This document shows, piece by piece, positions 27,683-52,551 of a stretch of 56,067 bases of DNA (positions are counted from its first letter, which is position 1; every line of letters begins with the position of its first letter). Below the pieces are notes generated by a model, which was not told the origin of the DNA, did no database searches, and saw only the letters and a program-made list of their open reading frames with translations. Both the position numbers and the translations under genes were made by a program. Source of the DNA: an uncultured Oscillospiraceae bacterium (GTDB taxonomy: Bacteria > Bacillota > Clostridia > Oscillospirales > Oscillospiraceae). The stretch spans positions 1 to 56,067 of the forward strand of contig CAZEPQ010000001.1 in assembly GCA_964514175.1 (NCBI GenBank), given 5' to 3'.

Positions 27683-27705
27683 GTTGGGGGGCATATAAAG
27701 GAAAA

Positions 27706-28617: not shown

Positions 28618-28814
28618 AGTCAATTACCTCCATTTTTGATCGTCAAGTTGCGATGCATCCATGTTGTTATTTTGAGTGTATCATACTTTCTTCCATGGAA
28701 CAATCGGCAAGTATTAAAAACATCCCAGATTTTAAACCCCAAAAACAAAACATCTTGTTTTTTTAATTCAACTGTGGTACTAATAAGAAAAATCACCCAA
28801 TATGGAGAATAAAC

Positions 28815-30074: not shown

Positions 30075-30188
30075 TAGCAGAATATCAGGAGCAGAGCATA
30101 CGAAAAGATGCCCGGCTCCTGATATTCTTATAATTCATAGATTTAATGAATTTTATGAAATTGACAACACAGCCCATGGGTGATAAAC

Positions 30189-31091: not shown

Positions 31092-31109
31092 ATTGAAGCC
31101 CCCTCGGCT

Positions 31110-31123
31110 TTATCTTAGCATAA
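31110..31123. promoter_or_regulatory. candidate LysR box (T-N11-A type dyad)
   Basis: TTATcttagcATAA dyad in the LysR / operon intergenic region. Confidence 0.3.
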
Positions 31124-31165
31124 CCCCATTTTTAAGGCAATCTTTTTTGTATGGGAGGACAGAAA

Positions 31166-32197: not shown

Positions 32198-32241
32198 ACC
32201 GGGATGTCCTGATATGAACTTTCTTTGAAGGAGGAAACAAA

Positions 32242-33885: not shown

Positions 33886-33978
33886 TCTACTATCCCAACA
33901 AAAAGCGACCGAGGGGTGCGGGTCTTCACCCGCACCCTCATTCTTTCGGTTTCATATATCCCACACTGAGGTGATCTT

Positions 33979-35846: not shown

Positions 35847-35858
35847 GGGGGGCGCGAC

Positions 35859-36839
35859 ATGAACGAAAAAATTCTTGAGGTACGCGACCTGTCCGTTCAC
35901 TTCTTCACAGAGGATGGCGACGTTGCGGCTGTAAACAGCATGAATATCTCTCTGGAGCGTGGAGATGTACTGGGTCTGGTGGGTGAAACCGGCGCAGGCA
36001 AGACCACCACCGCCAAGGCCATCCTCCAACTGATCCAGTCACCTCCCGGCAAAATCACCTCGGGTGAGATCCTCTTTGAGGGAGAAAACTTACTGGAAAA
36101 ATCGGAAAAAGAGATGCAGAAAATCCGTGGCGGCAAGATCTCTATGATCTTCCAGGATCCTATGACTGCACTGAATCCAGTCCTTTCTGTGGACGAGCAA
36201 ATCGCTGAGGTCATCCAGCTCCACAACGATGTGTCCAAGGCAGAATCCATTCAGAGAGCCCTGGAAATGCTGGAGAAGGTAGGCATTCCCGCATCCCGTG
36301 GCAAGGACTATCCCCATCAGTTCTCCGGCGGCATGAAGCAGCGTGTGGTCATTGCCATGGCCCTGGCATGCAACCCAGCCCTTCTGCTGGCAGACGAGCC
36401 TACTACAGCCCTGGATGTCACCATTCAGGCACAGGTACTGGACATGATGAAAGGTCTGAAGGACGAATTCGGCACATCCATGATTCTCATTACCCATGAC
36501 CTGGGCGTTGTAGCGGAGACCTGCAACAAGGTAGCCGTTATGTACGCCGGCGAGATCGTGGAATTTGGCACACTGGAGCACATTTTCCGCAATGCAAGCC
36601 ATCCCTATACCAAAGGCCTGTTTGCATCCCTGCCCAGCCTGGATCGAAAGGAGCGGCGGCTCCAGCCCATTCCTGGCCTGATGCCCGACCCTGCCAATCT
36701 TCCCGCAGGCTGTAAGTTTAATCCCCGCTGCAGCCAATGCCAGGAAGGAAACTGTGACGCACAGGCTCCCGCCATGGCAGAAATCGAGCCCGGACATTTT
36801 GTCCGCTGCCATCTAATGAACGGAAAGGAGGACGCATAA
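35859..36839 (+). CDS. ABC ATP-binding protein (DppD/OppD-like)
   Basis: Walker [10 protein letters not shown], signature FSGGMKQR, Walker [13 protein letters not shown], and a C-terminal oligopeptide-type extension. Confidence 0.9.
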
Positions 36840-37804
36840 TGGCACCCCAGCTTGAGGTTAAGAATCTGAAAAAGTACTTTAAGACTCCCTCCGGCATGCT
36901 CCATGCCGTTGATGACGTTTCCTTCACCATCGAGGCAGGCAAGACTCTGGGTGTCGTTGGCGAGTCCGGCTGCGGCAAGTCTACCCTTGGCCGTACCGTT
37001 CTGGGACTCCACGATGCCACCGAGGGAGAGGTTCTCTTTGAGGGCAAGCCCATTTCCGGCGGCAGCAGAAAGGAACGGAAGGAGCTGCGGCGGAATATGC
37101 AGCTCATCTTCCAAGACCCCTTCTCCTCCCTGAATCCCCGCTACTGTGTTTCTGAGCTGATCGCAGATCCTCTGAAAATCTATAAGGAATATAAGAACAA
37201 GGCAGATTTGCAGGATAAGGTTTACGAGCTGATGGATACCGTTGGCCTTGCCAGAAGACTGGCCTATGCCTATCCCCACGAACTGGACGGCGGACGCCGC
37301 CAGCGGATCGGCATTGCCCGGGCACTGGCCCTGAATCCCAAGTTCATCGTCTGTGACGAGCCGGTATCCGCTCTGGATGTGTCCATTCAGGCACAGATCC
37401 TGAATCTTCTCCAGGATCTCCAGGAGGAGAAAAAGCTCACCTATATCTTCATCACCCATGACCTGTCTGTCGTAAAGCATATTTCTGACGACATTCTGGT
37501 TATGTATCTCGGCACCGTAGTGGAAAAGTGTCCCTCGGATGACCTGTTCGAGGAGCCTCTGCACCCCTACACCAAGGGACTGTTGTCTGCAATTCCCATC
37601 CCTAACATTGATGTGAAACGGGAAAGGATTCTGCTCCAGGGTGAGCTCTCCTCGCCTGTGGATCCCAAGCCCGGATGCCGGTTTGCAGGCCGTTGCCCCT
37701 ACGCAACGGACAAGTGCAGAGCCGAATCCCCTGCGCTGGAGGAAGTAAAGCCCAATCACTTTGTTTCCTGCCATCACGTTCGGGAAATCAACGATAAAAT
37801 TTAA
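36839..37804 (+). CDS. ABC ATP-binding protein (DppF/OppF-like)
   Basis: Walker A GESGCGKST, signature LDGGRRQR, Walker B FIVCDEPVSALD. TAATG start/stop overlap. Confidence 0.9.
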   Translation: MAPQLEVKNLKKYFKTPSGMLHAVDDVSFTIEAGKTLGVVGESGCGKSTLGRTVLGLHDATEGEVLFEGKPISGGSRKERKELRRNMQLIFQDPFSSLNPRYCVSELIADPLKIYKEYKNKADLQDKVYELMDTVGLARRLAYAYPHELDGGRRQRIGIARALALNPKFIVCDEPVSALDVSIQAQILNLLQDLQEEKKLTYIFITHDLSVVKHISDDILVMYLGTVVEKCPSDDLFEEPLHPYTKGLLSAIPIPNIDVKRERILLQGELSSPVDPKPGCRFAGRCPYATDKCRAESPALEEVKPNHFVSCHHVREINDKI

Positions 37805-37816
37805 GGAGGATCATCC

Positions 37817-38653
37817 ATGGCAACAGTAATGAACCCCAGAAGAGTTCTTCTGATGTACGCAACCATGACAAAAAATACCCAGAAAATCGCCGAGTGCTTC
37901 AAAGAGACCTTTGAGCATTACGGCTGGGAGGTCACCTTTGTAAAGGTGGCCGGCAGCACTGACTGGGCAGGACTTCAGGATCAGCTCTACTTTGACGACT
38001 ACGATCTCATTTGCCTGGGCAGCCCCATCGTAGGCGGCTTCCCGCTGCAGTCTGTCATCAAAGCCTTCTCCTTTGGCGCAGGCGGCGCTCTGGAGAAGGA
38101 GGTCCAGGACAACCTGAACAGCAAGAAGGCCGATGCCGCGGCAGCTGCCAAGAAGCCCGAGGGCGCTACCTGGAGACGTACCAAGGCTCCTTCTCCCGGT
38201 ATGGCGGATCACGCTGCTCGCAGACCTTACGGCATCGTATTTACCACCTACGGCGGCGGTTTCTATGGCACCGACGAAGCAACCTGTACCCTTGAAACCC
38301 TGAAGATGTACCTAAAGCTCAACAACGTGGATGTAATTGGACGCTTCTCCTGTGGCGGCAAGGAAACCGGCCCTGCGGGGTATCCTCTGGGTGTGAAACC
38401 CAAGAAAGATTTTGTCCCCGGCAAAAAGAACGTAGGGGAAGATGCAGACATCTGCGATGCCGTACTCTATACCATGGGTGACGGCACTCAGGTTCCCGGT
38501 TCTTACTTTGTCCACTATGACAACGACAACAAGCCCGGTCCCAGAGAACAGATGAAAGCCAAAGCCTTTATCGCCGATATCATCGAAGACTTCTTCATGA
38601 CCTATGACGGCGTGCCCAATCCCCCCTTGTCCGAAATCGTATCCCTCAGTTAA
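37817..38653 (+). CDS. long flavodoxin-like protein, divergent paralog F3
   Basis: It shares its architecture with F1/F2: VLLMYATMTKNTQ, DYDLICLGSPIVGG, TTYGGGFYG, IGRFSCGGKE, and AKAFIADIIEDFFMT near the C-terminus. The phosphate loop is degenerate. AAGGAGG RBS. Confidence 0.6.
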   Translation: MATVMNPRRVLLMYATMTKNTQKIAECFKETFEHYGWEVTFVKVAGSTDWAGLQDQLYFDDYDLICLGSPIVGGFPLQSVIKAFSFGAGGALEKEVQDNLNSKKADAAAAAKKPEGATWRRTKAPSPGMADHAARRPYGIVFTTYGGGFYGTDEATCTLETLKMYLKLNNVDVIGRFSCGGKETGPAGYPLGVKPKKDFVPGKKNVGEDADICDAVLYTMGDGTQVPGSYFVHYDNDNKPGPREQMKAKAFIADIIEDFFMTYDGVPNPPLSEIVSLS

Positions 38654-38787
38654 GGCTTCTGCCGAAAGCTGTCCATATCCGTTTTGGGTATAAACTTGTC
38701 CCATGCGGATAAGCCAGATGCCTCCCCTTCGGCAAACAACATGCTCGAAGAGGAGATACTCCACCTTAAATTTCAGGAGGCATTTTT

Positions 38788-40245
38788 ATGTCAAAAGTAT
38801 ATGTACCCTATGGATTGGCGGCCACCTGCGGCCCCGGCTGTCGTGCGGAAATCATTCCGGGAAAGGGCGGCTTCGGCGGTCCCCCCGATGTGTATCCTCT
38901 GCCGGACAACTATTGCTCTCCTCTTGCGGAACTGCCGGACTGGTTTACCTATGAGCCTCAGGCAGAAATCAGCCGGGAAGGGATTCAGCTGGGAGAAAAA
39001 GCTCAGATCCAGGGAACTCTCTCTGCGGAGCTTGCACAGGACATCACCATGAAAATTGACGAGCCCGGCGTCAACGGATTCGTTGTTAATGATGACTGTA
39101 AATATACCATCCGTAACGCAGTCATTGAACTCAACGGTGATGGCGTAGACGATTTTGCCGGCTACAGTGCCGGTGTCAAAGCGGCAAACTGCTCCACTGT
39201 GGTGCTGGAAAACACAAAGATTACCACGTCCGGTATCATCCGTCCCTGCACCTCTGCCACAGAGTACTCCACCATGATCATTCGCAACTGTGAACTCAAT
39301 ACCCTTGGCGGCCATTTGGACAAAACGCAGCCTGTCCGTCCCGGGGCAGGAAAAGCCATGAAGGAGCCACCTCCCGGCCTGGGGATCGGCGGAAATTGCC
39401 GTACGCATCTGTCCGTAGGCGATTCACATACCTATTTTTACGATTCCAAAATCTACGCAGAGGGTTGGGCCGGTCTTTCCACCGATGCGTGCTACGGGGA
39501 TCTCTATCTGGAAGCAAACCGCTGCGACGTGGAGATTCGTGGACTCGGCTATGCATCCTACTGCGACAACGGGGGCAATGTGGTACTCAACGATTCCAGA
39601 CTGAAAGCCACCGTGGGCGTGATCGTGGCAGGACAGTGCCGCGAATATCTCAATCGGTGTACCCTTGAAGCGGACCATTACGGCGCTCTGATCCACAGCG
39701 TCCACGGCAACACCCATCAGCTTGCAGAGCTTTCTGTAAACGGCGGTCGAATCCATACGGGCAGAGAATGCATGCTCATTAAGAGTCATAACGCATATCT
39801 GGACATTCGGGGTGCCGAGCTAACCTCTGACATTGGGACCCTGATTCATACCGTGGTAAATGACGACGCACATACAACGGAGCTTCCGGAATATGAACCG
39901 GTATACGGTGTAAAGGTTGCCCTTTCCGATATGACGGTGGAGGGAGATATTATCCACGAGGATGTTCAAAGAACGATGTCCCTTACCATGAAGCATGTAA
40001 ACATGCGGGGTCGGATTGAAAATGCTATCCTCGTCATGGATCCGGCAACCACTTGGGTTGCTACCGAAGATTCCCACGTGACAGTTACCGCCACAGGCCC
40101 TGTGGGTAATATCGATGCATTGGAGGGAGTTACAGTCTACGTCAAGGGCGATGTATATGCTCCTGGCACGGTTTTGAATCTCCCCTCTGGCGGCAAGCTG
40201 ATTTCTGTAGATATTCCACCCCAGCATCTGGAGTTATCCTTCTAA
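38788..40245 (+). CDS. parallel beta-helix repeat protein, paralog P2 (485 aa, no signal peptide), function unknown
   Basis: LNGDGVDDFAGYSAGVKA, PPGLGIGGNCRTHL, WAGLSTDA and GYASYCD align with P1 (13432-15477). AGGAGG RBS. Confidence 0.55.
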   Translation: MSKVYVPYGLAATCGPGCRAEIIPGKGGFGGPPDVYPLPDNYCSPLAELPDWFTYEPQAEISREGIQLGEKAQIQGTLSAELAQDITMKIDEPGVNGFVVNDDCKYTIRNAVIELNGDGVDDFAGYSAGVKAANCSTVVLENTKITTSGIIRPCTSATEYSTMIIRNCELNTLGGHLDKTQPVRPGAGKAMKEPPPGLGIGGNCRTHLSVGDSHTYFYDSKIYAEGWAGLSTDACYGDLYLEANRCDVEIRGLGYASYCDNGGNVVLNDSRLKATVGVIVAGQCREYLNRCTLEADHYGALIHSVHGNTHQLAELSVNGGRIHTGRECMLIKSHNAYLDIRGAELTSDIGTLIHTVVNDDAHTTELPEYEPVYGVKVALSDMTVEGDIIHEDVQRTMSLTMKHVNMRGRIENAILVMDPATTWVATEDSHVTVTATGPVGNIDALEGVTVYVKGDVYAPGTVLNLPSGGKLISVDIPPQHLELSF

Positions 40246-40309
40246 GGGGTGCCATATCCCCAAACCCGCACAAGCATACAGAACCACTAACCTTTTGAGA
40301 AATACGAAA

Positions 40310-40351
40310 CAGGGGCGATTTTGCGAGAGTTTTCTCACAAAATCGCCCCTG
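40310..40351 (+). terminator. hairpin terminator after the ABC/flavodoxin/beta-helix operon
   Basis: ~18-bp stem caggggcgattttgcgaga / tctcacaaaatcgcccctg with one mismatch. The T tract is weak. Confidence 0.45.
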
Positions 40352-40599
40352 ACTCGTCTGTTATTCTGGCGAATACCACAAATCATCGGACTGCCTCTTT
40401 TTTTCTGCAATCTAAATTCAAGTAGGATAAGTTTGGCAGCGTACTACCCCGGGGGCCAATAAAAGCTTGTGGGCATCCTCCACATCTCGTTTTCCCGCTT
40501 TTATGCCTCTACCCCTCTTATTTCCCCCTATCGCTCACGAATGTCTGCAGGATAAAGTAAAAACGACATTGCGTTACACATGAATTGAAGGGATTTCAG

Positions 40600-40628
40600 T
40601 TGTGATTTACTTCCGCCTGCGCTATAAT
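40600..40628 (+). promoter_or_regulatory. sigma-A type promoter for AraC-3
   Basis: TTGTGA, 17-nt spacer, TATAAT (40623-40628). Confidence 0.45.
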
Positions 40629-40684
40629 AGACATCGAGATCGAAATATCTAACCGTCGAATCAATGACACAAAGAGGTAGCAGA

Positions 40685-41929
40685 ATGAGACTATCAGAAT
40701 GTATTTTCTACACGGGAACCGAAAAAAGAACCTTCTCGGACTATGTTAGGGCTCGGGATATGGTTGACGAACTGTTTACTCACTCCGATGGCTTATCTGA
40801 GCTGTACCTGGCAGAACTTCAGGCGGTTGGGGTCGATTTGCCGAAGCCGCCCATCCGGGTCATTACCATAACCCCTGCCATGGGAACAGAGACATTTTCC
40901 ATTCAGCATGCGGAAACCTTTGCAAAGGACATGATGGATGCGCTGCCGAGATATCTTAGGACACACGGCCTTTTCTATTACATTAACAGCCGCATTCAAG
41001 GCGTAGTCGCCGAAGATTCAGCTTTTGGAATTCAGGATATTTATTTGGGCCTAAAGGAACTGGTTGCCGGAGCGGGTGGAGTTCGTACGCCCCATGCGTC
41101 TATCAGCAATCGGTATGACTCCCTGTGGGAGATTAGCCGTGGCTGTGAGGAAAACCAGGAAGCCCATGTATTTGCACGGTTTCTTCAGAAACCTGTAGAG
41201 CTGCTGGTACAGCCGAAGGATCTGCATCTTCAGGGGGATGACATACCCCAGGACGAGGACGAGGAATTCTTTGGTCAGATTTCCCAGAAGATCTGCAATG
41301 CCATGGTGACAGAGGACCGGGAGCGGGTTCACAGGGCATTAGACGAAGCCCTGCATTTTATGGTCGGCAAATTCCCACGGGTCTCCGGGGTCCATATGCG
41401 TGCGCTTCGATTCTGCCATGCGCTGGAACTGACGCTGGTGGGAGCAGACCTGATCGACAGGCTGTTTATCCAGCAGTTTCGGCTGTTACAGGAGGTTATC
41501 GAGGCCGAAAACGAACATGCACTTCGAGAAACCTTCCACAAGAAAATGGATGAGATTTGCGACTATGCCCAGCAGCGCAAGGATCTTCAGCAGAGTGCCC
41601 ATATGCGTCAGATCATGGAATACATTGAGCGGAATTTGACAGACTCCATGTTATCCATTGCAAGCATTGCAGAGAATTTTCACATGACCGAGGAAAAGCT
41701 GTCCTCCACCTTCCGTGGCTACTTCCAGGAAAGCATTCCCAATGTCATCCACCAGAAACGGGTAGAATACATCAAAGAGCAACTTCTGACCACGAAGAAA
41801 TCTGTTCGTGATATCTGCTTTGATGCAGGCTATATCAGCATTGCCACCATGAACCGGGCGTTTTCCAGGATCGAGGGAATGTACCCCGGACGGTATCGGC
41901 AGGAATATCGCAAAAGGAAAGGAATATGA
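40685..41929 (+). CDS. AraC-family regulator with long receiver-less N-terminal domain (AraC-3)
   Basis: C-terminal HTH pair ...LSIASIAENFHMTEEKLSSTFRG...VRDICFDAGYISIATMNRAFSRI. AAAGAGG sits upstream of the ATG at 40685. An alternative ATG lies at 40664. Confidence 0.85.
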   Translation: MRLSECIFYTGTEKRTFSDYVRARDMVDELFTHSDGLSELYLAELQAVGVDLPKPPIRVITITPAMGTETFSIQHAETFAKDMMDALPRYLRTHGLFYYINSRIQGVVAEDSAFGIQDIYLGLKELVAGAGGVRTPHASISNRYDSLWEISRGCEENQEAHVFARFLQKPVELLVQPKDLHLQGDDIPQDEDEEFFGQISQKICNAMVTEDRERVHRALDEALHFMVGKFPRVSGVHMRALRFCHALELTLVGADLIDRLFIQQFRLLQEVIEAENEHALRETFHKKMDEICDYAQQRKDLQQSAHMRQIMEYIERNLTDSMLSIASIAENFHMTEEKLSSTFRGYFQESIPNVIHQKRVEYIKEQLLTTKKSVRDICFDAGYISIATMNRAFSRIEGMYPGRYRQEYRKRKGI

Positions 41930-41933
41930 TTGT

Positions 41934-41960
41934 AAGGACGGCCTGCGGGTCGTCCTTTTT
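41934..41960 (+). terminator. terminator after AraC-3
   Basis: Stem aaggacg / cgtcctt followed by TTTTT. Confidence 0.55.
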
Positions 41961-42000
41961 GCTCATTTTCGGGCAAAACTGCTCATTTGGGAGTCTTATA

Positions 42001-42029
42001 TTTACATTAATTTGTGCCTTTTTTATAAT
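42001..42029 (+). promoter_or_regulatory. near-consensus sigma-A promoter of the plus-strand NTF2 operon
   Basis: TTTACA (42001-42006), 17-nt spacer, TATAAT (42024-42029). Lies ~70 nt upstream of the first NTF2 gene. Confidence 0.55.
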
Positions 42030-42097
42030 TTAGATGTATCACTGTTTCTGAATAGAGCTTTTTCTGAACAGCTCCATCCTACAGAAAGCGAGGTCGA

Positions 42098-42841
42098 ATG
42101 ATGAAATCTTTAACAAGCGAGCAATTGGTCGGTATCTTTGAGGATCAGCGAGATTTAAAAAATCTCATGGGTAAGATCTGCTATACCATCCTCCTGAAGC
42201 AGGAGAAGGATATGGTTCAGCAGTTCTGGTCCCAAAGAGCGGACGTTTGCCTGGGCACCAATGCAGGTTATTATGACGGCGCTGATGCGGTCAAGGGATA
42301 TTACGAGGCTGTCCATCAGCACACAGTGGAGGCAACTGAATTTCTGAAAAAGGCTTTCCCGGATCGGATGGGAAAGCTTACCGAAGAGGAACAGTTCGGC
42401 GCCGGCTCCATGGACGTCAAGCCCATGGATACCGCCGTCATTGAGATCGCCGGAGACGGGGAAACCGCCAAGGGAATCTGGTATTCTCGTGGCACCTACA
42501 ACGATTTGACAGAGCAGGGACCTCTGGCCTTCTGGAAGCTGGGCGTCTATGCCTGTGACTTTGTCCGGGAAGATGGTCAGTGGAAGGTATGGCATATGCT
42601 GAATCTGACGGACGTACTGGTTCCCGGCGGAAGAAGCTGGGCAGACGCCGAAATCGAGCCCTATCCCGATCTTCCGGAATGGGCCGGGGCCAAGTCCTTT
42701 GTACCTCCGGCACCCAATCGTCCCCAGGTATTGCGGGAGGTTTATTATCCAGGCCGCCCCATGGCACCCCTGCCGGAGCCCCCGGTGCCCTATGAGACAT
42801 TTGCCGACACATTCTCCTACGGCTGCGAAAAGGAGGCTTGA
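42098..42841 (+). CDS. NTF2-like protein, subfamily A, copy 2
   Basis: FWSQRADVCLGTNAGYYDGADAVKGYY, GPLAFW, EDGQWKVWHML, and tail PVPYETFADTFSYG. Confidence 0.7.
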   Translation: MMKSLTSEQLVGIFEDQRDLKNLMGKICYTILLKQEKDMVQQFWSQRADVCLGTNAGYYDGADAVKGYYEAVHQHTVEATEFLKKAFPDRMGKLTEEEQFGAGSMDVKPMDTAVIEIAGDGETAKGIWYSRGTYNDLTEQGPLAFWKLGVYACDFVREDGQWKVWHMLNLTDVLVPGGRSWADAEIEPYPDLPEWAGAKSFVPPAPNRPQVLREVYYPGRPMAPLPEPPVPYETFADTFSYGCEKEA

Positions 42842-42843
42842 AC

Positions 42844-43617
42844 ATGAATTACTACGAGGACAGACAGTATACCGATGATGAATTGATCATTCGGGTAATG
42901 GATAAAGAAGAAATTAAAAAACTCATGGCCCGCCGTGCCTTCTACTATGCAGGTGACCAGCGCCGCCGGGAGCTGGATGAACTGTGGGTCAGCACCCCGG
43001 AATACAAAACATCCGCATCCTATGGCCGCAACTGGGGTTATTATGTGGGCATGGATTCCATCGCAAATTATTATGTGATCGAACACACCAAAAAGCAGTA
43101 TGCGCTCCTTGAGGCCATTCATGCGGTTAAGCCTGAGGTGGAAGTGAACAATCTGAACCTGGGCTACGGCGCCTGTTCCTTCCATACTGTGACCACCCCC
43201 ATGATCTACATTGCCGGAGACGGAAAAACTGCCCGTGGCCTGTGGTATACCCCCGGACACGAAACCCTGATGCAGCCGGATGGCACCGCCAAGGCCTACT
43301 GGACCATGGACAATATGGCTGCTGACTTTGTTAAGGAAAACGGTCAGTGGAAGATCTGGCATCTGGTCGTGTGCAGCGACTTCTTTGTGGAAGCCGGAAC
43401 AGACTTTAAGACCGGCACCCTGGAACCGCTGACCGGACCCGATCCCTTCCGGGATGAGTTCGGCACCCCTGACATCCCCATGACGGTCCACAATCCCCGC
43501 TATAATCTCTCTGACAACTATCCCCCCATGCCTCTGCCTTATGACACCTACACTGTAGCCGGAAGCATGGCGCCGGAGGGACATCCCAACTATAAGAAGG
43601 AGGTTCTGAAACGATGA
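42844..43617 (+). CDS. NTF2-like protein, subfamily B, copy 2
   Basis: AGGAGG (42831-42836) lies 7 nt upstream of the ATG at 42844. EEIKKLMARRAFYYAGDQ, LWVS...SASYGRNWGYYVG, ENGQWKIWHLV. Confidence 0.7.
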   Translation: MNYYEDRQYTDDELIIRVMDKEEIKKLMARRAFYYAGDQRRRELDELWVSTPEYKTSASYGRNWGYYVGMDSIANYYVIEHTKKQYALLEAIHAVKPEVEVNNLNLGYGACSFHTVTTPMIYIAGDGKTARGLWYTPGHETLMQPDGTAKAYWTMDNMAADFVKENGQWKIWHLVVCSDFFVEAGTDFKTGTLEPLTGPDPFRDEFGTPDIPMTVHNPRYNLSDNYPPMPLPYDTYTVAGSMAPEGHPNYKKEVLKR

Positions 43618-44522
43618 AGACCCATCTGAGCTTACATCAGCGCATCCATAACGCCGACGGCAGCCAGCAGATTGAGAATCTCAAAGCCATCCATGCCTAT
43701 ACCCACGCCAGAAACTGGCCTGTGGAAGAATGGGATAACATTTGGGACCTGTCTGACGATTGCTCCTGGGCCCACGGCTTTGGCCGGTGGAGAGGCGGCT
43801 ATAAGGTCTATCTGAACTCCGTGACCGAGTGGGACATTCCTACCTTCACAAACTACATGAAGCTCTATAAGCTCTATCCCGATGTTATGGGTATGGATCC
43901 CAGACCTCTAAACTTCTCTCCCGTGCATAATCTCTCCAGCGAGATCATCGAGGTGGCGGACGACGGAAAGTCTGCCCGTGGCGCTTTCCTGACCCCCGGC
44001 AACATCTATGAATACTTGAAGCCTCAGCAGCGCCGCCGTGCCATCTTCATGTGGGAGCGCTATGGCGCCGACTTCGTCTGTGACGAGAACGGACACTGGA
44101 AGTACCTCCACGAGCATGTCTGCCCGGATTTCCAGGGCAACTATGACGACGCAAACTGGGGCCTAGAGGCATATCATCTTGCCACAAATCCCAATATGCG
44201 CAACTCCGCATCGCCTCCCCCGGATGCGGATGCAGCCGGTGCCGGCCCCAACAGTGTCAACTCCACCCCCAAGGATAAGGGCGAAGGCGGACCCGGTGGT
44301 CCCGGTGGCCCTGGCGGTCCTGGCGGAGCAGCACCGGAAGGCCCTCCCCCGGATACCGGTGGAGCTGGCCCGAGAGATATGATGCTGGATGATCCCGGCC
44401 CCCTGCATCGGGAGTATGAGTTCCTGATGCCCATTCAGAACACCTGTCCCTGGCCCGAGCCCTACGAGACCCTGGACAATAACAACACCTATACACCTTT
44501 TATCGGAAAAGACCGCCTGTAA
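43614..44522 (+). CDS. NTF2-like protein, subfamily C, copy 2, with Gly/Pro-rich segment
   Basis: ATGA overlap with the B2 stop. IEVADDGKS, WERYGADFVCDENGHWKYLHEHVCPD, GEGGPGGPGGPGGPGGAAPEGPPPD, and tail PWPEPYETLDNN. Confidence 0.7.
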   Translation: MKTHLSLHQRIHNADGSQQIENLKAIHAYTHARNWPVEEWDNIWDLSDDCSWAHGFGRWRGGYKVYLNSVTEWDIPTFTNYMKLYKLYPDVMGMDPRPLNFSPVHNLSSEIIEVADDGKSARGAFLTPGNIYEYLKPQQRRRAIFMWERYGADFVCDENGHWKYLHEHVCPDFQGNYDDANWGLEAYHLATNPNMRNSASPPPDADAAGAGPNSVNSTPKDKGEGGPGGPGGPGGPGGAAPEGPPPDTGGAGPRDMMLDDPGPLHREYEFLMPIQNTCPWPEPYETLDNNNTYTPFIGKDRL

Positions 44523-44543
44523 CGAAAGAAAGGAGACCTGCAA

Positions 44544-45434
44544 ATGACTGTTGAAGAACGCCTGGAAATTCTCGAAAAACAAGTTCAGCGCAACAAGGAC
44601 TACAATGAGATCCAGAATCTAATGGCCCGGTATGAATTCTTCCATTCCTGCGGACAGGATTCCTACATTGCCCGGAACCTCTTTGCCTACTGGCATCCCG
44701 ATGCAAATTCTGAATATGGGCCTCTGGGCGTGTTCGATGCCCAGGGATCTGTGGATTTCTTTGATAACCAGTCCTGCATGATGACCGACGGCACTTTCTA
44801 CCGTCCCGCCAAGGGTAACGCTATCATCCATCAGGTCACCACCCCCTGCATTGAAATTGCAGAGGACGGCATGTCCGCCAAGGGCACCTGGCTTTCCATC
44901 GGCGGCGAGCTTATGGGCGGCGATATGTACATGGGCCCCATGATCGCCCCCGGAGAGGAACTCCCCGCAGAGATGCCCAAGCCCCCCATGCCTCCTGCCG
45001 GCGGTGAAAAGAAGGAAGGCCCTCCGCCCCAGCAGGGCAGCGGCTTCCGCATCGACTTTGCCTACTATGCCGAGGATTTCATCAAGGATGAAAACGGCAA
45101 GTGGTGGATCCTCCATCACCATGTCTGTGACCGCTGGACCGCAGAGCTGGATACGGATTTCCTCCGGAATGTGAAATCCGGTCAGAAGAAGGCGCGGGAA
45201 TGGATGACCCAGGAGAAGATCGACGCCGCAAAGGGTCAGCCCGCAAAGCCCGGCGCACAGCCTTCTGCACCCACCACCTACCATTACGAGCTGGATAAGG
45301 ATCATGGCATTCCTTACTTCCCCGTGCCCCCAGAACCCTACACCACCCTGTCCGAGGCAAAGAGCTTCCTGCCTCAGGATTGGACCGATACCTATGACTT
45401 TATGAAAAAATTCCTAGATGAGGGGAATTTGTAA
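44544..45434 (+). CDS. NTF2-like protein, fourth type (D), BaiE-like N-terminus with internal Pro-rich insertion
   Basis: MTVEERLEILEKQVQRNKDYNEIQNLMARYEFF, IEIAEDGMSAKGTW, DENGKWWILHHHVCD, insert PMIAPGEELPAEMPKPPMPPAGGEKKEGPPPQQG, and tail PPEPYTTLSEA. AAAGGAG RBS. Confidence 0.7.
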   Translation: MTVEERLEILEKQVQRNKDYNEIQNLMARYEFFHSCGQDSYIARNLFAYWHPDANSEYGPLGVFDAQGSVDFFDNQSCMMTDGTFYRPAKGNAIIHQVTTPCIEIAEDGMSAKGTWLSIGGELMGGDMYMGPMIAPGEELPAEMPKPPMPPAGGEKKEGPPPQQGSGFRIDFAYYAEDFIKDENGKWWILHHHVCDRWTAELDTDFLRNVKSGQKKAREWMTQEKIDAAKGQPAKPGAQPSAPTTYHYELDKDHGIPYFPVPPEPYTTLSEAKSFLPQDWTDTYDFMKKFLDEGNL

Positions 45435-45473
45435 TCCGGCGCACTCATCAAAACTAAGTAAAGGAGAATTGTT

Positions 45474-47177
45474 ATGAAGAAATTACTCGCACTGCTGCTT
45501 GCACTTTGCATGGTATTCTCTCTGGTTGCCTGCGGCGGCGCTGCCAGCACCGCTGAAGAAGCCACCGCTTCTGCCGAAGAGACCCAGGCTTCCGAGCCCG
45601 TTGCAGAAGAAGCTCCGGCCGTGGAGGAGGCTGCTCCTGTCGAAGAAGCACCCTCTGCCGCAGAGGAAGCCCCTGTTGAAGAGGCCGGCCCTCAGAAGGT
45701 TGCGGTTGAGCTTCCCATCGTGGATGAGCCCACAACCTATACCATCTGGTACAGCGAACCCTTCGCAGAATATGTTGAGAATCCCGCAGAGGATGTTGGC
45801 GTGTTCGTTTCTCTGGCAGAGCGCACGAATATCAGCTTTGAGTTCAACCTGGCAAGCGTTGATACTGCCAGTGAGAAGTTCCAGCTCATGTTTGCATCCG
45901 ATGACCTGCCCGATGTGATCACCGATGCCATGCAGTATTATTCCGGCAGTATCGACGATGCTGTTTACGAGGATGCATTCCTGTATGATTACTCTGGCGA
46001 TCTCGACTCCATGCCCAACTACAGCTACACCCTGAATCAGTATGTGGAAGCCAAGAAGACCCTGACCAGCGAATCCGGCGCCATGGTATCCTTCCCTGAA
46101 ATGTATGAAGACATCGGCGATATTGATGGATTTATGATTCGCAAGGACTTCCTGGAAGGCTCCGGCCTGGATATTCCCACCACCTACGAAGAGTTCCATG
46201 AGCTCCTGACCGTAGTTTACAATCAGACCGGCGCAGGCCTGGGCCTGTCCTCCTCCGGCGGCGACAGCAAGCTGGGCGCAGGCTTCGGCATCAACACCGG
46301 CCTGGATGACGAGGATATTTCCGGCTGGTACCTGGACGGCGATACCGTTATGCTGGGCATCCTCCAGCCCGAGTTCCTGGATTACCTTGAGATGGTAAGC
46401 GAATGGTATGCTGAAGGCATTATTTATCAGGACTTTGTAAGCCTGGATCAGGCTGATCTGTCCGGTATTTTCAGCGGCCAGGTTTCCATTAACATTAAGG
46501 TTCCTGAAATCGTGGAAGTTTCCAACAAGGTTATCGGCGTTGAAATGGTAGCTATGGCTATGCCTCGCCAGAACGCTGGTGACGAGCTGCACATCTGCGG
46601 CGGCGCTACCTCTTGCCTGATGGATGCAAACTGCTGGAGCATTAACGTAAATGTTGACGACCCCACGCCTCTGCTTCAGCTTATCGACTACATGTACTCT
46701 GACGAGGGCTACTACCTGATGAACTACGGTGAGGAAGGCTTCTCTTATAACATGGTGGATGGCGAACCTGTTTTCACCGACATTGTTATCGCAAATCCCG
46801 ACGGTTACGATTATGCGCTGGCTGCTTATCTGTACGCCACCTCCAACCGTACTCGCCTGCCCTTCCTCAGCGACTATGACCGTTGCTTCGCACAGTACAC
46901 CGATGCTCAGTGGGATGCCATCAACATCTACGCAGAGGACTGCGACCATGCTGCTGACTTCCCCAACGGTGCTATTATGACCACCGAGCAGAAGGAAGCC
47001 TATAATACTGTTGCTTCCGATATTTCCACATATATCGCAGAACACGTTCTGAAGTTCATCTATGGCCAGACCGACCTGTCCGAGTGGGACGCATTTGTCC
47101 AGACCCTTTACGACATGGGCATCGAAACTGCCATTGCTGCAAAACAGGCTGCATACGACGATTATCTGGCTGCCTAA
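45474..47177 (+). CDS. large extracellular solute-binding lipoprotein (ABC family-1), orphan
   Basis: MKKLLALLLALCMVFSLVACGG lipobox, an acidic linker EEATASAEETQASEPVAEEAPAVEEAAPVEEAPSAAEEAPVEE, and 567 aa. AAAGGAG RBS. Confidence 0.85.
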   Translation: MKKLLALLLALCMVFSLVACGGAASTAEEATASAEETQASEPVAEEAPAVEEAAPVEEAPSAAEEAPVEEAGPQKVAVELPIVDEPTTYTIWYSEPFAEYVENPAEDVGVFVSLAERTNISFEFNLASVDTASEKFQLMFASDDLPDVITDAMQYYSGSIDDAVYEDAFLYDYSGDLDSMPNYSYTLNQYVEAKKTLTSESGAMVSFPEMYEDIGDIDGFMIRKDFLEGSGLDIPTTYEEFHELLTVVYNQTGAGLGLSSSGGDSKLGAGFGINTGLDDEDISGWYLDGDTVMLGILQPEFLDYLEMVSEWYAEGIIYQDFVSLDQADLSGIFSGQVSINIKVPEIVEVSNKVIGVEMVAMAMPRQNAGDELHICGGATSCLMDANCWSINVNVDDPTPLLQLIDYMYSDEGYYLMNYGEEGFSYNMVDGEPVFTDIVIANPDGYDYALAAYLYATSNRTRLPFLSDYDRCFAQYTDAQWDAINIYAEDCDHAADFPNGAIMTTEQKEAYNTVASDISTYIAEHVLKFIYGQTDLSEWDAFVQTLYDMGIETAIAAKQAAYDDYLAA

Positions 47178-47192
47178 ACCATAGGAATTACA

Positions 47193-47246
47193 AGGTGCTG
47201 TCTCAAAATGATTCTCAGGAATCAAAAGAGGCAGCACCTCTTTTTT
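47193..47246 (+). terminator. rho-independent terminator of the plus-strand NTF2/SBP operon
   Basis: 12-bp stem aggtgctgtctc / gaggcagcacct followed by CTTTTTT. Confidence 0.65.
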
Positions 47247-47405
47247 ACAATCAGACGCAACAAAGAATTTGCATCAGTGGTAGATTCTTTTTGCATTTGT
47301 GGTACAATAATACCGTGAAGAAGTATACCGCCTGGCATACTTTTATATTTTGTGTCTCTGAGAACGGCCCCGTCGTTCCCAAAGAAAAGGAAGGAGAACG
47401 AGGTA

Positions 47406-47831
47406 ATGTATGAAATCGAAAAGGTAATTCACGCCGGGATCAGCGTTTACAACATGCAGCAGAGCCTTGCGTGGTACGCCGATAATCTGGGGTTTCAGTT
47501 GCTCAGGGACGACGGCTTTATCCCCCCGCTGGAAGCACATATATGTTTTTTGGAGAAAGACGGTTTTCAGATTGAACTGTTTGAGTACAAGACCCCCAAA
47601 CCGCTGCCCACGGATCGCCTCATGCCAAATTCAGACCTGCAGACAGTCGGTACAAAGCATATCGCCTTTTCCGTAAAAGGCATGGATGAATTAAAAAGCA
47701 AGCTGGTACAGAACGGTACCGAAATTGCACTGGAAACAGAGATGAACGGCACGCGTGTGCTATTCATCCGGGACTGTAACGGCGTGCTGATCGAGCTTCT
47801 GGAACCTCCCCAGGAAGAAGTCACCCTGTAA
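47406..47831 (+). CDS. VOC / glyoxalase-bleomycin-resistance-dioxygenase superfamily protein
   Basis: 141 aa. IHAGISVYNMQQSLAWYADNLGF...HICFL...GFQIELFE...GTKHIAFSV...NGVLIELLE shows the paired beta-alpha-beta-beta-beta pattern. GGAGAA RBS before the ATG at 47406. Confidence 0.8.
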   Translation: MYEIEKVIHAGISVYNMQQSLAWYADNLGFQLLRDDGFIPPLEAHICFLEKDGFQIELFEYKTPKPLPTDRLMPNSDLQTVGTKHIAFSVKGMDELKSKLVQNGTEIALETEMNGTRVLFIRDCNGVLIELLEPPQEEVTL

Positions 47832-48097
47832 AAACAATTTGCGTTCAGAGGCATCTGGGGACGGTTGTGCTGGCCGAAAAGGACAGAGCAGAGCCTGAAT
47901 ATGACCACCGCCCCTTTCGAGCTGGGTGTGTAGAGTCTGTGCAAACAATATACCGCTGGTCGGAGCAGTCCATGACTTCACCTGTCTGCAAGTGGGAAAG
48001 AACTATTTTTTCTACCCACTCAGAAAACTATAATGGGGTTATGAAAGGAAATCGTTATGCGGCGCAGATCCGGAAATTGTTGTGTATCTGCACTGAT

Positions 48098-49517: not shown

Positions 49518-49740
49518 AGTGTAAAATACCTCCTCATTTTAGCTCCGCTAATATCATATCACAAACCGCCAAGCATTCGCAAGGAACGAAATATGACCTT
49601 TAAACTTTGCGGCCGCCTTTCTGTTTTGCGTCTTTTTCTCTTCTAATCTCCATTGTACCCTTTTGCGTCCTCTTTGGGGGCGCTTATTTTTTCGCACATT
49701 TCCTTTTTGCTCAATACAAAATCGTGACACTTTTGCATAT

Positions 49741-49772
49741 GAAAAATTCCGGCAGCGAAACCGCTGCCGGAA
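49741..49772 (-). terminator. rho-independent terminator after NTF2-C copy 3
   Basis: 11-bp stem ttccggcagcg / cgctgccggaa followed on the minus strand by TTTTT. Lies 14 nt after the stop at 49786. Confidence 0.7.
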
Positions 49773-49785
49773 CGGATGTAAGCTA

Positions 49786-50790
49786 TCAGGGTTTCTTCTT
49801 GGGCTGAGCACCCTTGTTCTCACCCAAACCTACGCAGTAGTGAACCTTCACATCATCCAGCGTAACGAAGGGTTCCGGCCAAGGGGTGGAATCCTGTGCA
49901 GGCTGAACGGGAGACCAGGTCTGGTGGGATGCGGGCAATCTGCCCTGCTTGGGGCCCTCTGCCATCTTGGAATAGGCCTGCCCCTTCTTGGGGGCACTGC
50001 TGGGACCACCAGGAGCACCGCCAGGACCACCAGGAGCACCGCCGGGACCGCCGGGAACACCGCCAGGACCACCTGCTGCACCAGGCGCACCACCAGGACC
50101 GCCGGGAGCACCGCCAGGACCACCGGGAGCACCGCCAGGACCACCTGCTGCACCAGGCGCACCACCAGGACCGCCAGGGCCACCACCATTGCCGCCGGGC
50201 TGGGGACGTCCGCCGCCCTTAAACTTATTGTAGCAGTCAATGGCAAAGTTGGTAACATCCTGTGCACCGCCAGCATCATTGAGCACGCACTCGTGGAGGA
50301 TCTTCCAGAAACCATCCTCACGGACGTAGTCCTCACCGTAACGTTCCAGCATCCAGACAGCCATCTGCTTACCGCTGGTGGAGATACGGCGGTAGAGCAT
50401 ACCGGTGGAGTAGAACAGGGCACGGGCGGTCAAGAGATCCTCGCCAACCTCAACGATGGGAGTACCAATGGCGTGGAGAGAATACTCGGAAAGAGGCAGG
50501 GGATCCATATTCACGGTCTCGGGATACATCTCGTTGAAAACCTCAAACATCCGGCGGCCACCGCCCTCAAGACCATTGGCCCAGTTGGTCATAACTTCGT
50601 CACGGCCATAGTTGCCGGTCATATTGTAGCCCCAGTACAGGTCATCCCGGTACTTGGCCCAGAAAGTTTCGATCTCCTCGGTGGTGTGGCCGGAGGCATG
50701 AAGGATCGCATGCCATGCGTGAACCTTTTCACAGTTCTGACCAGCTTCAATTATGGCCAGCTTTGTCTCTAAATCAATGTTTTTTCTCAT
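49786..50790 (-). CDS. NTF2-like protein, subfamily C, copy 3, with long (GGPGGAP)n repeat
   Basis: AAGGAGGG RBS. VEVGEDLLT, LERYGEDYVREDGFWKILHECV, a ~65 aa Gly/Pro tract, and tail PWPEPFVTLDD. Confidence 0.7.
   Translation of the reverse strand: MRKNIDLETKLAIIEAGQNCEKVHAWHAILHASGHTTEEIETFWAKYRDDLYWGYNMTGNYGRDEVMTNWANGLEGGGRRMFEVFNEMYPETVNMDPLPLSEYSLHAIGTPIVEVGEDLLTARALFYSTGMLYRRISTSGKQMAVWMLERYGEDYVREDGFWKILHECVLNDAGGAQDVTNFAIDCYNKFKGGGRPQPGGNGGGPGGPGGAPGAAGGPGGAPGGPGGAPGGPGGAPGAAGGPGGVPGGPGGAPGGPGGAPGGPSSAPKKGQAYSKMAEGPKQGRLPASHQTWSPVQPAQDSTPWPEPFVTLDDVKVHYCVGLGENKGAQPKKKP
50010..50215 (-). repeat. imperfect tandem coding repeat (72-nt super-period built from 15/21-nt GGPGG / APGGPGG units)
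   Basis: acctgctgcaccaggcgcaccaccaggaccgcc occurs at 50071 and again at 50143. All six reading frames stay open across the tract. Confidence 0.8.
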
Positions 50791-51584: not shown

Positions 51585-52310
51585 TCAAATACCGTAGCTG
51601 AAGGTCTCAGCCAGGGTGGTGTAAGGAACAGGCATCTGCGGTGGCTCCTGATAAGGCCGATCCACGCTGTATGCCTTATAAACTTCCTTCTGGACATTGG
51701 GAACAGGCTCAGGAATGTCGAAGGCAGCAAACTCTTTCAGCTCGGGATACTTGCTTTCTTCGGTCCAGGGCTCTGCACAGGGATGATCAATATCCACTGC
51801 GTACAGCAGGTTCATGATCTTCCACTCGCCGTCTTCAATAACCAGATCCGCAGCCATGTAACCGATCTTCCAAATACTCAGAGGGCCTCTGGAAGTGACG
51901 CGGGTATCTGCTGCCTGGAACTGCCAGAGCGCCTTGGCACTCTGCATATCCTCGGCTACTTCAATGATGGGAGAGTGCATATCGGTACCTTTGACATAGC
52001 CGGCACCAAACATCTCTTCCTCGGTCTTTCCCTTCACCTTGTCGTGGTCTGCCCACTTTTCCATAACAAGTTTGGTAAGCTTTTTGGCATTCTGAAGTTT
52101 CTGATCGTAGTAGCCCTTTACAGCCTCTGCGCCCTTAAAATAACCATTGTTAAATCCCAGGCACACATCCTCGCTCTTGCTCCAAAACTGGGGAACCAGA
52201 TCATAGTCTGCAAGCATGTCGCAGTGTGCGACTTTACCCACAATATTCTGGACCTCGCGAATGATCAGACAACGGTCTGCCATTTCCTGCGCCGTATACT
52301 GTTTGCTCAA
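51585..52310 (-). CDS. NTF2-like protein, subfamily A, copy 3
   Basis: TTG start at 52310, 7 nt after AAAGGAGGAA. FWSKSEDVCLGFNNGYFKGAEAVKGYY, GPLSIW, EDGEWKIMNLL, and tail PVPYTTLAETFSYGI. The longer ORF-track version (to 52577) has no RBS and would overlap the HxlR gene start. Confidence 0.7.
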   Translation of the reverse strand: MSKQYTAQEMADRCLIIREVQNIVGKVAHCDMLADYDLVPQFWSKSEDVCLGFNNGYFKGAEAVKGYYDQKLQNAKKLTKLVMEKWADHDKVKGKTEEEMFGAGYVKGTDMHSPIIEVAEDMQSAKALWQFQAADTRVTSRGPLSIWKIGYMAADLVIEDGEWKIMNLLYAVDIDHPCAEPWTEESKYPELKEFAAFDIPEPVPNVQKEVYKAYSVDRPYQEPPQMPVPYTTLAETFSYGI

Positions 52311-52551
52311 CGTAATTCCTCCTTTAATAATGTTTTCCGAGACCAAGTGAATCTCGGTCTTTCTATTTCTAAATTTACCTAGAACAAAGGAAAAGGTCAA
52401 GAACGCACATTTTGATGACAATGAGTAGTTTCCCCCATTTTGGGGTGTTTTCCGAACTTTTTGACACATTTGAAAAGAATGTGCGAGAATTGAAAAGCCG
52501 CAAAAAAGGGATATAAAGTATAATTTAATCAGGCAGAAAGGAGGCGTTGAC

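Follow-up and report, generated by a model that had tools for sequence, protein, structure and literature searches.

An operon of four NTF2-fold paralogues and a solute-binding lipoprotein in an uncultured Oscillospiraceae bacterium, and the division of roles that its residue conservation suggests

The stretch of DNA analysed here, referred to as the window, comprises 56,067 nucleotides (nt) of an uncultured Oscillospiraceae bacterium (assembly GCA_964514175.1, contig CAZEPQ010000001.1, positions 1 to 56,067) and contains at 42001-47246 one operon, made up of a promoter, five co-oriented genes and an intrinsic terminator. A2, B2 and C2 form the second of three A-B-C cassettes in the window (copies 1 to 3) and are followed by a fourth paralogue, D, and by SBP2, the gene of a solute-binding protein (SBP). 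The features of the operon, with protein lengths in amino acids (aa), are:

42001-42029, plus strand: operon promoter (-35 TTTACA at 42001-42006, 17-nt spacer, -10 TATAAT at 42024-42029).
42098-42841, plus strand: A2, 247 aa, NTF2-fold protein of the SnoaL_4 family.
42844-43617, plus strand: B2, 257 aa, SnoaL_4 protein; the open reading frame (ORF) opens at TTG 42838.
43614-44522, plus strand: C2, 302 aa, divergent NTF2-like protein without a Pfam match.
44544-45434, plus strand: D, 296 aa, fourth paralogue, of LdpA-like type.
45474-47177, plus strand: SBP2, 567-aa lipoprotein, family-1 solute-binding protein resembling AlgQ and Smon0123.
47193-47246, plus strand: intrinsic terminator of the operon (-27.8 kcal/mol, z = -5.5), followed by a U-run.

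A preliminary description of this DNA had placed the promoter TTTACA-17-TATAAT at 42001-42029 and had read A2, B2, C2, D and the 567-aa lipoprotein as a single operon up to a strong terminator at 47193-47246, and all of these features are in place. The ATGA coupling that it had assigned to A2, B2 and C2 exists at the B2/C2 junction (43614-43617) but not between A2 and B2: A2 ends with TGA 42839-42841, and the start of B2 is most likely ATG 42844, since AAGGAGG lies upstream as a ribosome-binding site and an independent gene call on the identical contig of locus L085 (related loci carry L numbers) likewise gives a protein of 257 aa, making the TTG at 42838 an unlikely start. The gaps between C2 and D (21 nt) and between D and SBP2 (39 nt) each contain a ribosome-binding site of their own. 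Compared with copy 1, the operon was said to lack a reductase and to have gained an extra NTF2-like gene, which the annotation bears out; since copy 1 also carries an SBP lipoprotein gene (19554-21314), located before its reductase, the missing reductase and the extra gene D are the real differences between the two copies. SnoaL_4 (PF13577) scores 40.3 bits in A2, 43.0 in B2 and 23.2 in D, against a gathering score of 24, and C2 gives no match; none of the NCBIfam models matches A2, B2, C2 or D. Comparison of 40000-48000 with Rfam revealed neither a riboswitch nor a leader RNA, every match falling far below its gathering score. The long minus-strand ORFs at 45483-47237 (584 aa) and 42817-43584 were rejected as shadows of the coding strand.

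All-against-all BLASTP of the three window cassettes resolves their products into clean A, B and C orthology groups, with identities of 44% (A1-A2), 37% (B1-B2) and 37% (C1-C2), but only 25-30% between types. In sequence searches of the PDB, A2 matched only LdpA (8ABT/8ABU/8ABV/8ABW), and D matched BaiE and LdpA. The AlphaFold models of A2 (predicted local distance difference test score, pLDDT, 91.3) and D (pLDDT 83.8, with low confidence in a Pro-rich loop at about 124-167 and in the tail) each find over 100 PDB chains of the NTF2 fold (E <= 1e-3), an alpha+beta cone in which three helices pack against a curved sheet. In Foldseek comparisons with the PDB, LdpA is the best match of both models (E = 1e-10 to 1e-11), for both with 8abt/8abu/8abv and over nearly the full length including the C-terminal arm; the alignments to LdpA chains span 230-245 columns for A2 and 226-292 columns for D and cover this arm. 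Behind LdpA, the A2 model finds Rv3472 and LinA before BaiE, which ranks about thirteenth, and the D model finds BaiE, a putative scytalone dehydratase, LinA and gallate decarboxylase. C is tied to LdpA by profile alignment only (hhalign probability 92%). The term BaiE-like used in the preliminary description is therefore apt at the level of the fold, but in both sequence and structure A2 and D match LdpA best.

LdpA, a diarylpropane lyase and the gamma-formaldehyde lyase for erythro-DGPD in Novosphingobium aromaticivorans and Sphingobium sp. SYK-6, is a homotrimer whose subunits are joined through the C-terminal arm (PMC9942872). Its reaction proceeds by benzylic dehydroxylation to a quinone methide and depends on the Motif I residues His97 and Asp40, on Glu143 of Motif II and on Tyr35 and Tyr147, which form the oxyanion hole (PMC9942872). 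The enzyme is cofactor-free, is active on erythro-1,2-diguaiacylpropane-1,3-diol and both dehydroxylates and deformylates a phenolic lignin dimer. It shares with the window proteins a length of about 250 aa and an NTF2/SnoaL_4 core that is extended at the C-terminus by an arm of about 70 residues, and it is their closest solved relative, as far as A2 and D are concerned. However, the identity is only 18-24%, which does not imply orthology, and LdpA is encoded by a single gene in aerobic sphingomonads, whereas three linked paralogues, two of them without the catalytic set, occur here in an anaerobic gut Firmicute together with an SBP and an AraC regulator. Moreover, Gly/Pro-rich insertions are present in C and D, Asp40 has no counterpart or no clear one, and the Glu-Tyr-Gln triad is only partly kept.

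BaiE (4LEH, 4L8O, 4L8P), the trimeric and cofactor-free bile-acid 7-alpha-dehydratase of gut Clostridia, also has the SnoaL_4 fold, and D resembles it in the N-terminal helix and in the position of Tyr30. By contrast, the modelled BaiE chains of about 165-168 residues are too short for an LdpA-like arm, the window proteins measure 247-302 aa, BaiE is a weaker match than LdpA for both the A2 and the D model, and its gene stands in a bai operon alongside those of BaiB, BaiCD, BaiF, BaiH and others. LinA (gamma-HCH dehydrochlorinase) and scytalone dehydratase are further NTF2-fold eliminases with a His-Asp dyad, trimeric in the case of LinA, that match at E = 1e-6 to 1e-4, but they have no arm, are homomeric and have unrelated substrates and genomic contexts. 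The window proteins are members of the NTF2/SnoaL_4 superfamily that are most similar to the cofactor-free eliminases and lyases LdpA, BaiE and LinA, and they are orthologues of none of these, because the identity is about 20%, Motif I is incomplete, Motif II is partial and there is no bai context.

The catalytic positions were compared by aligning family alignments from the related loci (A, n = 106; B, n = 99; C, n = 98; D together with the related D' group, n = 9) with residues 9-183 of NaLdpA using hhalign (probabilities 92-98%) and counting the catalytic columns. H105, E148 and Y150 of C, the equivalents of His97, Glu143 and Tyr147 of LdpA, are present in 98/98 sequences, and H27, H31, H54, D95, R97, E113, R122 and R149 likewise show no or almost no variation in this family. 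From the LdpA catalytic set, B has kept only the His (H116 in B2), in 69% of the sequences; in A the position of the His lies within a deletion, and the other catalytic positions vary. The Asp40 position is occupied by Leu in A and by Ala in B, and the positions of Glu143, Tyr35 and Tyr147 are variable in both families. The D/D' family retains Y30 (equivalent to Tyr35), H96, D171 and Y175 in 9/9 sequences. An arm motif, P-x-P-Y-x-T, is common to A, B, C and D; in A2 it is part of a conserved C-terminal arm, YYPGRP...PxPYxTFxxTFSYG, and in C2 the arm motif PWPEPYETL follows a Gly/Pro-rich linker. The strand motif LH(E/H)xVC(P)D is common to C and D and absent from A and B. In comparison with the orthologues of L081 and L082, C is the most constrained gene of the operon (90-91% amino-acid identity), with ratios of non-synonymous to synonymous substitution rates (dN/dS) of 0.04-0.06 for C, 0.07-0.09 for B, 0.13 for A, 0.09-0.13 for D and 0.18-0.20 for the SBP. 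In C2 (43614-44522) and C3 (49786-50790) the Gly/Pro-rich linkers (GGPGGPGG...) give rise to spurious long ORFs in other frames and on the opposite strand, for example at 49663-50772 and 49988-50233, both on the plus strand. Some C-type genes (L010 7763-9367, L011 8274-9854 and L076 11459-12982) are lengthened by a Gly/Pro-rich linker of great length and by an additional domain at the C-terminus (about 190 aa), which shows no similarity to the A, B, C and D references.

A2 has 242 homologues at E <= 1e-5 in a word-indexed protein search, and at least 486 relatives were found in a scan of one genome per GTDB species. Among the 120 A2 homologues listed none bears a functional name, the few named ones being called "hypothetical protein," and the same is true of the D homologues listed; a look-up of eight clusters gave no names either. 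The cassette statistics cover the best 80 loci of these at least 486 relatives, with every ORF classified by BLAST. Almost all of these loci belong to metagenome-assembled genomes (MAGs) of uncultured Oscillospiraceae/Clostridiales, sampled from humans (Hadza and Nepal among them), chicken, deer and rumen, and a single genome often contributes several of them. The order A-B-C is found in 91/91 cassettes, and the genes are present in numbers of 105:102:100 (A:B:C). An SBP gene lies directly downstream in 17/67 scorable cassettes and upstream in 7-10/74, and genes for OYE/FAD reductases and AraC regulators are frequent neighbors.

The asymmetry of the catalytic residues, the fixed gene order, the 1:1:1 gene counts, the shared arm motif and a fusion of A with B suggest a heterotrimer with one copy each of A, B and C, in which C would be the catalytic subunit and A and B degenerate partners. 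On the evidence of the residues, C2 is probably the catalytic subunit of copy 2 and A2 probably a non-catalytic one. The fusion was seen in L065 (9992-11563), where an ORF of 523 aa joins an A-type and a B-type domain by a linker of about 30 residues and is followed by the C gene; this ORF is a natural Rosetta-stone fusion or else reflects a frameshift in the assembly, and tandem two-domain proteins are present elsewhere in the superfamily. PhzA/PhzB of phenazine biosynthesis reportedly form a heterodimer of NTF2/KSI fold that is encoded by adjacent paralogous genes and in which one partner has lost the catalytic residues. This pair differs in being a dimer of another subfamily with another chemistry, so that it serves as an analogy only.

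D shows weak matches throughout to A, B and C in BLASTP, the best being B2 (26%, E = 7e-9), and is distinguished by a Pro-rich loop, about 45-50 residues long, and by an additional helix of 21 residues at the C-terminus. Its orthologues, 80-88% identical, occur in only a few assemblies, and wherever the context is available the order is A-B-C-D-SBP (L081/L086, L082, L085, L087); an AraC gene lies upstream in L081/L086 and is absent there in L082. The D protein of L085 is identical to that of the window and stands in the same gene order, and L085 probably represents the same organism. The preliminary description had considered that D might be a decayed duplicate of A, B or C instead of a distinct conserved type. 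The 26% identity to the best paralogue, the invariant residues and the dN/dS of 0.09-0.13 led us to reject a recent or decayed duplicate, and with orthologues of 80-88% identity in the same order they mark D as a distinct, conserved fourth type. Four-gene and three-gene versions of the cassette, which the description had proposed to compare, both exist: A-B-C-D-SBP is found in a few loci, and the closest orthologues of copy 2 (A2 73-85% identical; L001, L003-L009, L014, L084) read A-B-C-SBP or A-B-C, with no D-type ORF within the fetched flanks and a C-SBP gap of less than 160 nt that leaves no room for D.

Among 1.84 billion representative proteins, an HMMER profile search recovered essentially one 50%-identity cluster of true D and a fragment, then the D' group (P0126, E = 2e-44) and, trailing behind, a number of weak relatives. 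D' shares about 38% identity with D, has neither the Pro-rich loop nor the C-terminal helix, and always stands beside an A-B-C cassette and an OYE/FAD reductase gene (RED), in the orders D'-RED-A-B-C, RED-D'-A-B-C or D'-A-B-C-RED. More distant D-like genes (26-28% identity) come from soil, sediment and wetland metagenomes and have no A-B-C genes nearby. These stand-alone genes adjoin redox genes (L102 1319-4896, L108 2453-5095, L100 7615-9855, L110 3283-5769), their neighbors encoding pyrogallol-hydroxytransferase-like molybdopterin enzymes with Fe-S subunits as well as FAD_binding_2 and flavodoxin-like proteins, a gene set that is typical of anaerobic phenol metabolism. The three loci that carry D fail to group as a clade in a neighbor-joining tree built from concatenated A+B+C, and a single gain of D in one clade was rejected owing to this scatter. 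The lack of D in the closest cassettes and the solitary position of the distant D-like genes make it probable that D serves as an accessory enzyme and not as a fourth subunit.

Upstream of the operon lies the gene of an AraC/XylS-family regulator, AraC3, and the region between the two contains a pair of direct repeats:

40600-40628, plus strand: promoter-like site of AraC3, TTGTGA-17-TATAAT (10/12).
40664-41929, plus strand: AraC3, 421-aa AraC/XylS-family regulator, C-terminal part HTH_18/HTH_AraC.
41934-41962, plus strand: intrinsic terminator of AraC3 (hairpin 41934-41957 with a 10-bp stem and a 4-nt loop, then a T-run).
41960-41968, plus strand: distal direct repeat TGCTCATTT, a putative AraC3 half-site, conserved in the orthologues that show the motif.
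41980-41988, plus strand: proximal direct repeat TGCTCATTT, starting 20 bp after the distal copy and ending 12 nt before the -35 element.

As the preliminary description had stated, AraC3 has the same orientation as the operon and a promoter and terminator of its own. The regulator matches HTH_18 with 61 bits as well as HTH_AraC, its N-terminal part of about 300 aa is uncharacterized, and orthologues of it (48-60% identity) lie upstream of most cassettes of the copy-2 type. The operon promoter is located in an AT-rich intergenic region (168 nt, 40% GC), 97 nt before the start of A2, and is the sole sigma-70 match of at least 11/12 on both strands of the 56 kb window, with 0.36 expected by chance. 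When the upstream regions of the copy-2 orthologues were anchored on the -35 element, a conserved layout emerged: (T/A)(G)CTCATTT, about 13 nt, CTCAT(T/C)T, 12 nt, TTTAC(A/T), 17 nt, TAnnnT. The repeat is conserved in register in those orthologous loci that show the motif (it is degenerate in L081, ATCAATT), and so is the -35 element, TTTAC(A/T), which departs from the consensus at position 3 wherever it is seen. Unlike these, the flanking sequence varies, and the -10 element is variable (TACACT, TATGCT, TACGCT, TAAATT, GATAAT), being TATAAT only in the window and in L004. The window contains two two-copy matches to the repeat (at most one mismatch per copy), of which only the promoter pair is intergenic. 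Activator sites of the AraC/XylS type, such as araI1-I2 or those of XylS at Pm, consist of paired direct repeats about two helical turns apart that abut the -35 element. The copy-2 promoter likewise has two direct repeats beside the -35 element and an adjacent regulator gene, and it differs in the spacing of 20 bp and in the uncharacterized N-terminal domain of its regulator. The repeats about two helical turns apart, the conserved imperfect -35 element and the adjacent AraC gene favor activation by AraC3. The perfect -10 element is a lineage-specific feature that may raise basal expression. A further direct repeat in the 5' untranslated region (UTR) of the operon, CTGTTTCTGAATAG (42042-42055) and CTTTTTCTGAACAG (42058-42071), is not conserved in the orthologous loci.

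The N-terminus of SBP2, MKKLLALLLALCMVFSLVAC, consists of a signal peptide with the lipobox LVAC, followed by an Ala/Glu/Pro-rich linker. Its PDB matches are 1Y3N, 1J1N, 5XS8 and 5GUB (AlgQ1/AlgQ2 and Smon0123; E = 8e-29 to 1e-21 over about 450 residues), the best of which (E = 8e-29) covers residues 107-561, and it is 30% identical to SBP1, which matches SBP_bac_1. With AlgQ1/AlgQ2, which bind alginate oligosaccharides, and Smon0123, a binder of glycosaminoglycan disaccharides, SBP2 shares membership in the class of large (>480 aa) family-1 SBPs. Those proteins, however, have their own permeases in the operon and acidic oligosaccharide ligands, whereas SBP2 is an orphan co-transcribed with genes of cytoplasmic NTF2-fold proteins. 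There is no CUT1-type permease in the window, whose sole ABC system is of the Opp type (32242-37804), and the related loci, about 1.1 Mb in all, contain only two ORFs that resemble permeases and have an EAA motif, a near absence that identifies the SBPs of these loci as "orphans." SBP2 would capture its substrate at the cell surface and use a transporter encoded elsewhere. Four genes of large family-1 SBP lipoproteins are present in the window, at 1966-3678 and 45474-47177 on the plus strand and at 10086-11861 and 19554-21314 on the minus strand.

Taken together, we propose the following course of events. AraC3 would activate the sigma-A promoter through the two direct repeats just upstream of the -35 element. 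A2, B2 and C2, as three ancient paralogues of an extended NTF2-fold family, would form the 1:1:1 heterotrimer, with a complete acid/base and oxyanion-hole site in C only (H105, E148 and Y150, plus H27 and H31), and the arms and cores of the degenerate A and B would build the trimer and perhaps the substrate pocket. D, which belongs to a rare lineage, would be an LdpA-like enzyme in its own right, probably homotrimeric and equipped with its own catalytic residues, that adds a second related elimination, lyase or isomerase step in the D-carrying lineage only. Surface-anchored SBP2 would bind the substrate and hand it over to the transporter encoded elsewhere. The substrate is the weakest step of the scheme, and our guess, drawn from circumstantial evidence, is a plant-derived phenolic compound, possibly glycosylated: LdpA chemistry acts on p-hydroxyphenyl compounds, flavin ene-reductases recur beside the cassettes, GH3, FAD_binding_2 and flavodoxin-like genes are present in the window, and D-like genes have neighbors of the molybdoenzyme type. 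A further hint is that the nearest SBP2 structures bind oligosaccharides. As a whole, with activation by AraC3, the A-B-C heterotrimer, a separate enzyme D, capture by SBP2 and a phenolic substrate, we give this explanation an even chance. The parts that the sequence data demonstrate are the anatomy of the operon, the fold, the conservation of residues, the linkage statistics and purifying selection.

Several points weigh against parts of it. Every characterized relative (LdpA, BaiE, LinA) is a homotrimer, and the residue mapping is based on profile alignments at 20-29% identity. In C the position of Asp40 is not confidently alignable and the equivalent of Tyr35 is unclear, and D has Ser or Thr at the Asp40 position. 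The position of LdpA Tyr165 is Val in both C2 and D, and that of Gln170 is Gln in C2, variable across the C family and Thr in D. A and B retain several invariant polar residues and could have non-canonical active sites. These residues, the homotrimeric state of all characterized relatives and a ribosome-binding site for each gene would suit A, B and C being three separate homotrimeric enzymes for consecutive steps. We regard this as improbable, given that the Glu and Tyr essential in LdpA are not kept in A or B and the His only in 69% of B, when all of them are found in C, and that a 1:1:1 ratio and fixed order persist despite the low identity between types; the A-B fusion in L065 and the unequal selective constraint, strongest on C, point the same way. 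It is similarly doubtful that D, for which the preliminary description had implied a fourth-subunit role, is an obligate subunit, so that copy 2 would make an A-B-C-D hetero-oligomer with a specificity unlike that of three-subunit cassettes. D is indeed co-transcribed between C2 and SBP2 with tight spacing, every D/D' gene found in gut genomes adjoins an A-B-C cassette, and D shares the arm motif with A, B and C and the LH(E/H)xVCxD strand motif with C. But the nearest orthologous cassettes lack D, the D-carrying loci form no clade in the A-B-C tree, D' has no fixed place (it lies upstream, downstream or with a reductase gene in between), the distant relatives stand alone, D has a full catalytic set of its own, and relatives of the same fold are trimers.

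For the preferred reading, in which the A-B-C heterotrimer and D act on a plant phenolic, an alternative substrate class is offered by BaiE. The cassettes could be BaiE-type dehydratase modules for the reductive dehydroxylation of steroids or bile acids, with the OYE/FAD reductases corresponding to BaiCD/BaiH and the CoA-transferase to BaiF. The rank of BaiE among the structural matches (second for D, about thirteenth for A2), the alignment of the N-terminal helix of D to BaiE, the 215 bits of the copy-1 reductase RED1 on the BaiCD model and the CoA-transferase gene after copy 3 agree with this. On the other hand, LdpA is closer in sequence and structure and shares the arm that BaiE appears to lack; RED1 stays far under the BaiCD cutoff of 825 bits and scores higher on other models; Pfam and NCBIfam annotation revealed no bai operon and no other bai genes in the window; MAGs from rumen, deer and chicken contain the family in abundance; the SBP is similar to proteins that bind oligosaccharides; and both a reductase and a CoA-transferase are missing from copy 2. 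A steroid or bile-acid role is less likely than a plant phenolic one, and of the alternatives weighed here it is the one that we consider least probable. As for regulation, the preliminary description had taken the near-consensus promoter as a possible sign of repression or high basal expression. Accordingly, the promoter might be constitutive or repressor-controlled, its hexamers giving high basal expression without the need for AraC3: it matches the consensus at 11/12, better than any other site in the window, AraC3 has a terminator that insulates it from the operon, and the 5' UTR repeat at 42042-42071 could be an operator. The perfect -10 element, in particular, could permit substantial activator-independent transcription, which weighs against control by AraC3. 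Comparison with the orthologues nevertheless reveals an activator layout, with the repeat at a fixed distance from a conserved -35 element that is off consensus at position 3 in every case and with weak -10 elements (TACACT, TATGCT, TACGCT, TAAATT), and the 5' UTR repeat lacks conservation. Constitutive or repressed expression hence seems unlikely to us, and judging from these sequence comparisons the operon is more likely activated by AraC3. The remaining objections concern SBP2 and the substrate: the operon has no cognate permease or ATPase genes and the only ABC system of the window is of the Opp type, which makes the uptake role of SBP2 an assumption, and the substrate evidence is circumstantial.

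What is new is an obligately linked three-paralogue cassette with asymmetric conservation of catalytic residues and a massive expansion in uncultured Oscillospiraceae. In the literature on SnoaL/NTF2-like proteins in gut bacteria or Oscillospiraceae no description of the cassette family was found, the LdpA paper being the only relevant one. Tentatively, and with rather less confidence than in the scheme for copy 2, A-B-C may be an undescribed obligate heterotrimer, locked by its arms, of a catalytic C and the pseudo-enzymes A and B, with the cassettes serving as substrate-specific modules for phenolic compounds and D as a second lineage. If so, each of the many divergent cassette copies that a single gut or rumen Oscillospiraceae genome can contain would be a module, usually with its own AraC regulator, an orphan lipoprotein and/or a flavin ene-reductase, that performs cofactor-free benzylic dehydroxylation or C-C lyase chemistry on plant phenolics like lignans, lignin dimers or stilbenoids, and D a self-sufficient enzyme lineage recruited to few cassettes. 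Uncultured Oscillospiraceae are abundant in human and animal guts, and their conversion of dietary plant compounds is barely known; heteromeric LdpA-like lyases or dehydratases acting with flavin reductases would provide a new anaerobic route for polyphenols, lignans and lignin fragments, as well as a clear case of enzyme evolution by duplication and degeneration of subunits. The catalytic residues of C2, the AraC3 operator, the natural three-gene and four-gene variants and the A-B fusion are testable targets.

The other two cassettes of the window lie on the opposite strand:

23743-17502, minus strand: copy 1, A1-B1-C1-SBP1-reductase.
About 52310-49786, minus strand: copy 3, A3-B3-C3, followed by a CoA-transferase gene.

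An AraC-family gene adjoins each of the three cassettes. The longest ORF of A3 (51585-52577, minus strand, 330 aa) is probably overcalled; alignment with A1 and A2 and the ribosome-binding site AGGAGG indicate a start at TTG 52310 (about 241 aa), with a promoter-like site, TTGACC-17-TAAATT, upstream. Copies 1 and 2 are about 17 kb apart in the window, and in L004, L006 and L009 the cassettes of the copy-1 and copy-2 types are immediate neighbors. The genes between copies 1 and 2 (25469-40245) encode a second OYE/FAD reductase, AraC and LysR regulators, a PanE-like reductase, the Opp transporter, a flavodoxin-like protein and a beta-helix protein, and the window also contains GH3 glycosidase, OYE/FAD reductase, FAD_binding_2 and flavodoxin-like genes. 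Two ORFs without Pfam matches, at 13432-15477 (minus strand, 681 aa) and 27607-28812 (plus strand, 401 aa), stand among reductase, SBP and regulator genes. Among the related loci, L005, L014, L018, L053, L060, L064 and L078 are on contigs labeled Barnesiella, Bacteroidaceae, Bacteroides sp. or Flexilinea; these are probably mis-binned, because their cassettes are like those of Oscillospiraceae loci (73-77% identical in L005 and L014, and typical of such loci in the others). After the operon terminator, a VOC/glyoxalase-family gene (47352-47831, plus strand) with a likely start at about 47406 (141 aa, as in L085) occupies the same position in the window and in L085.

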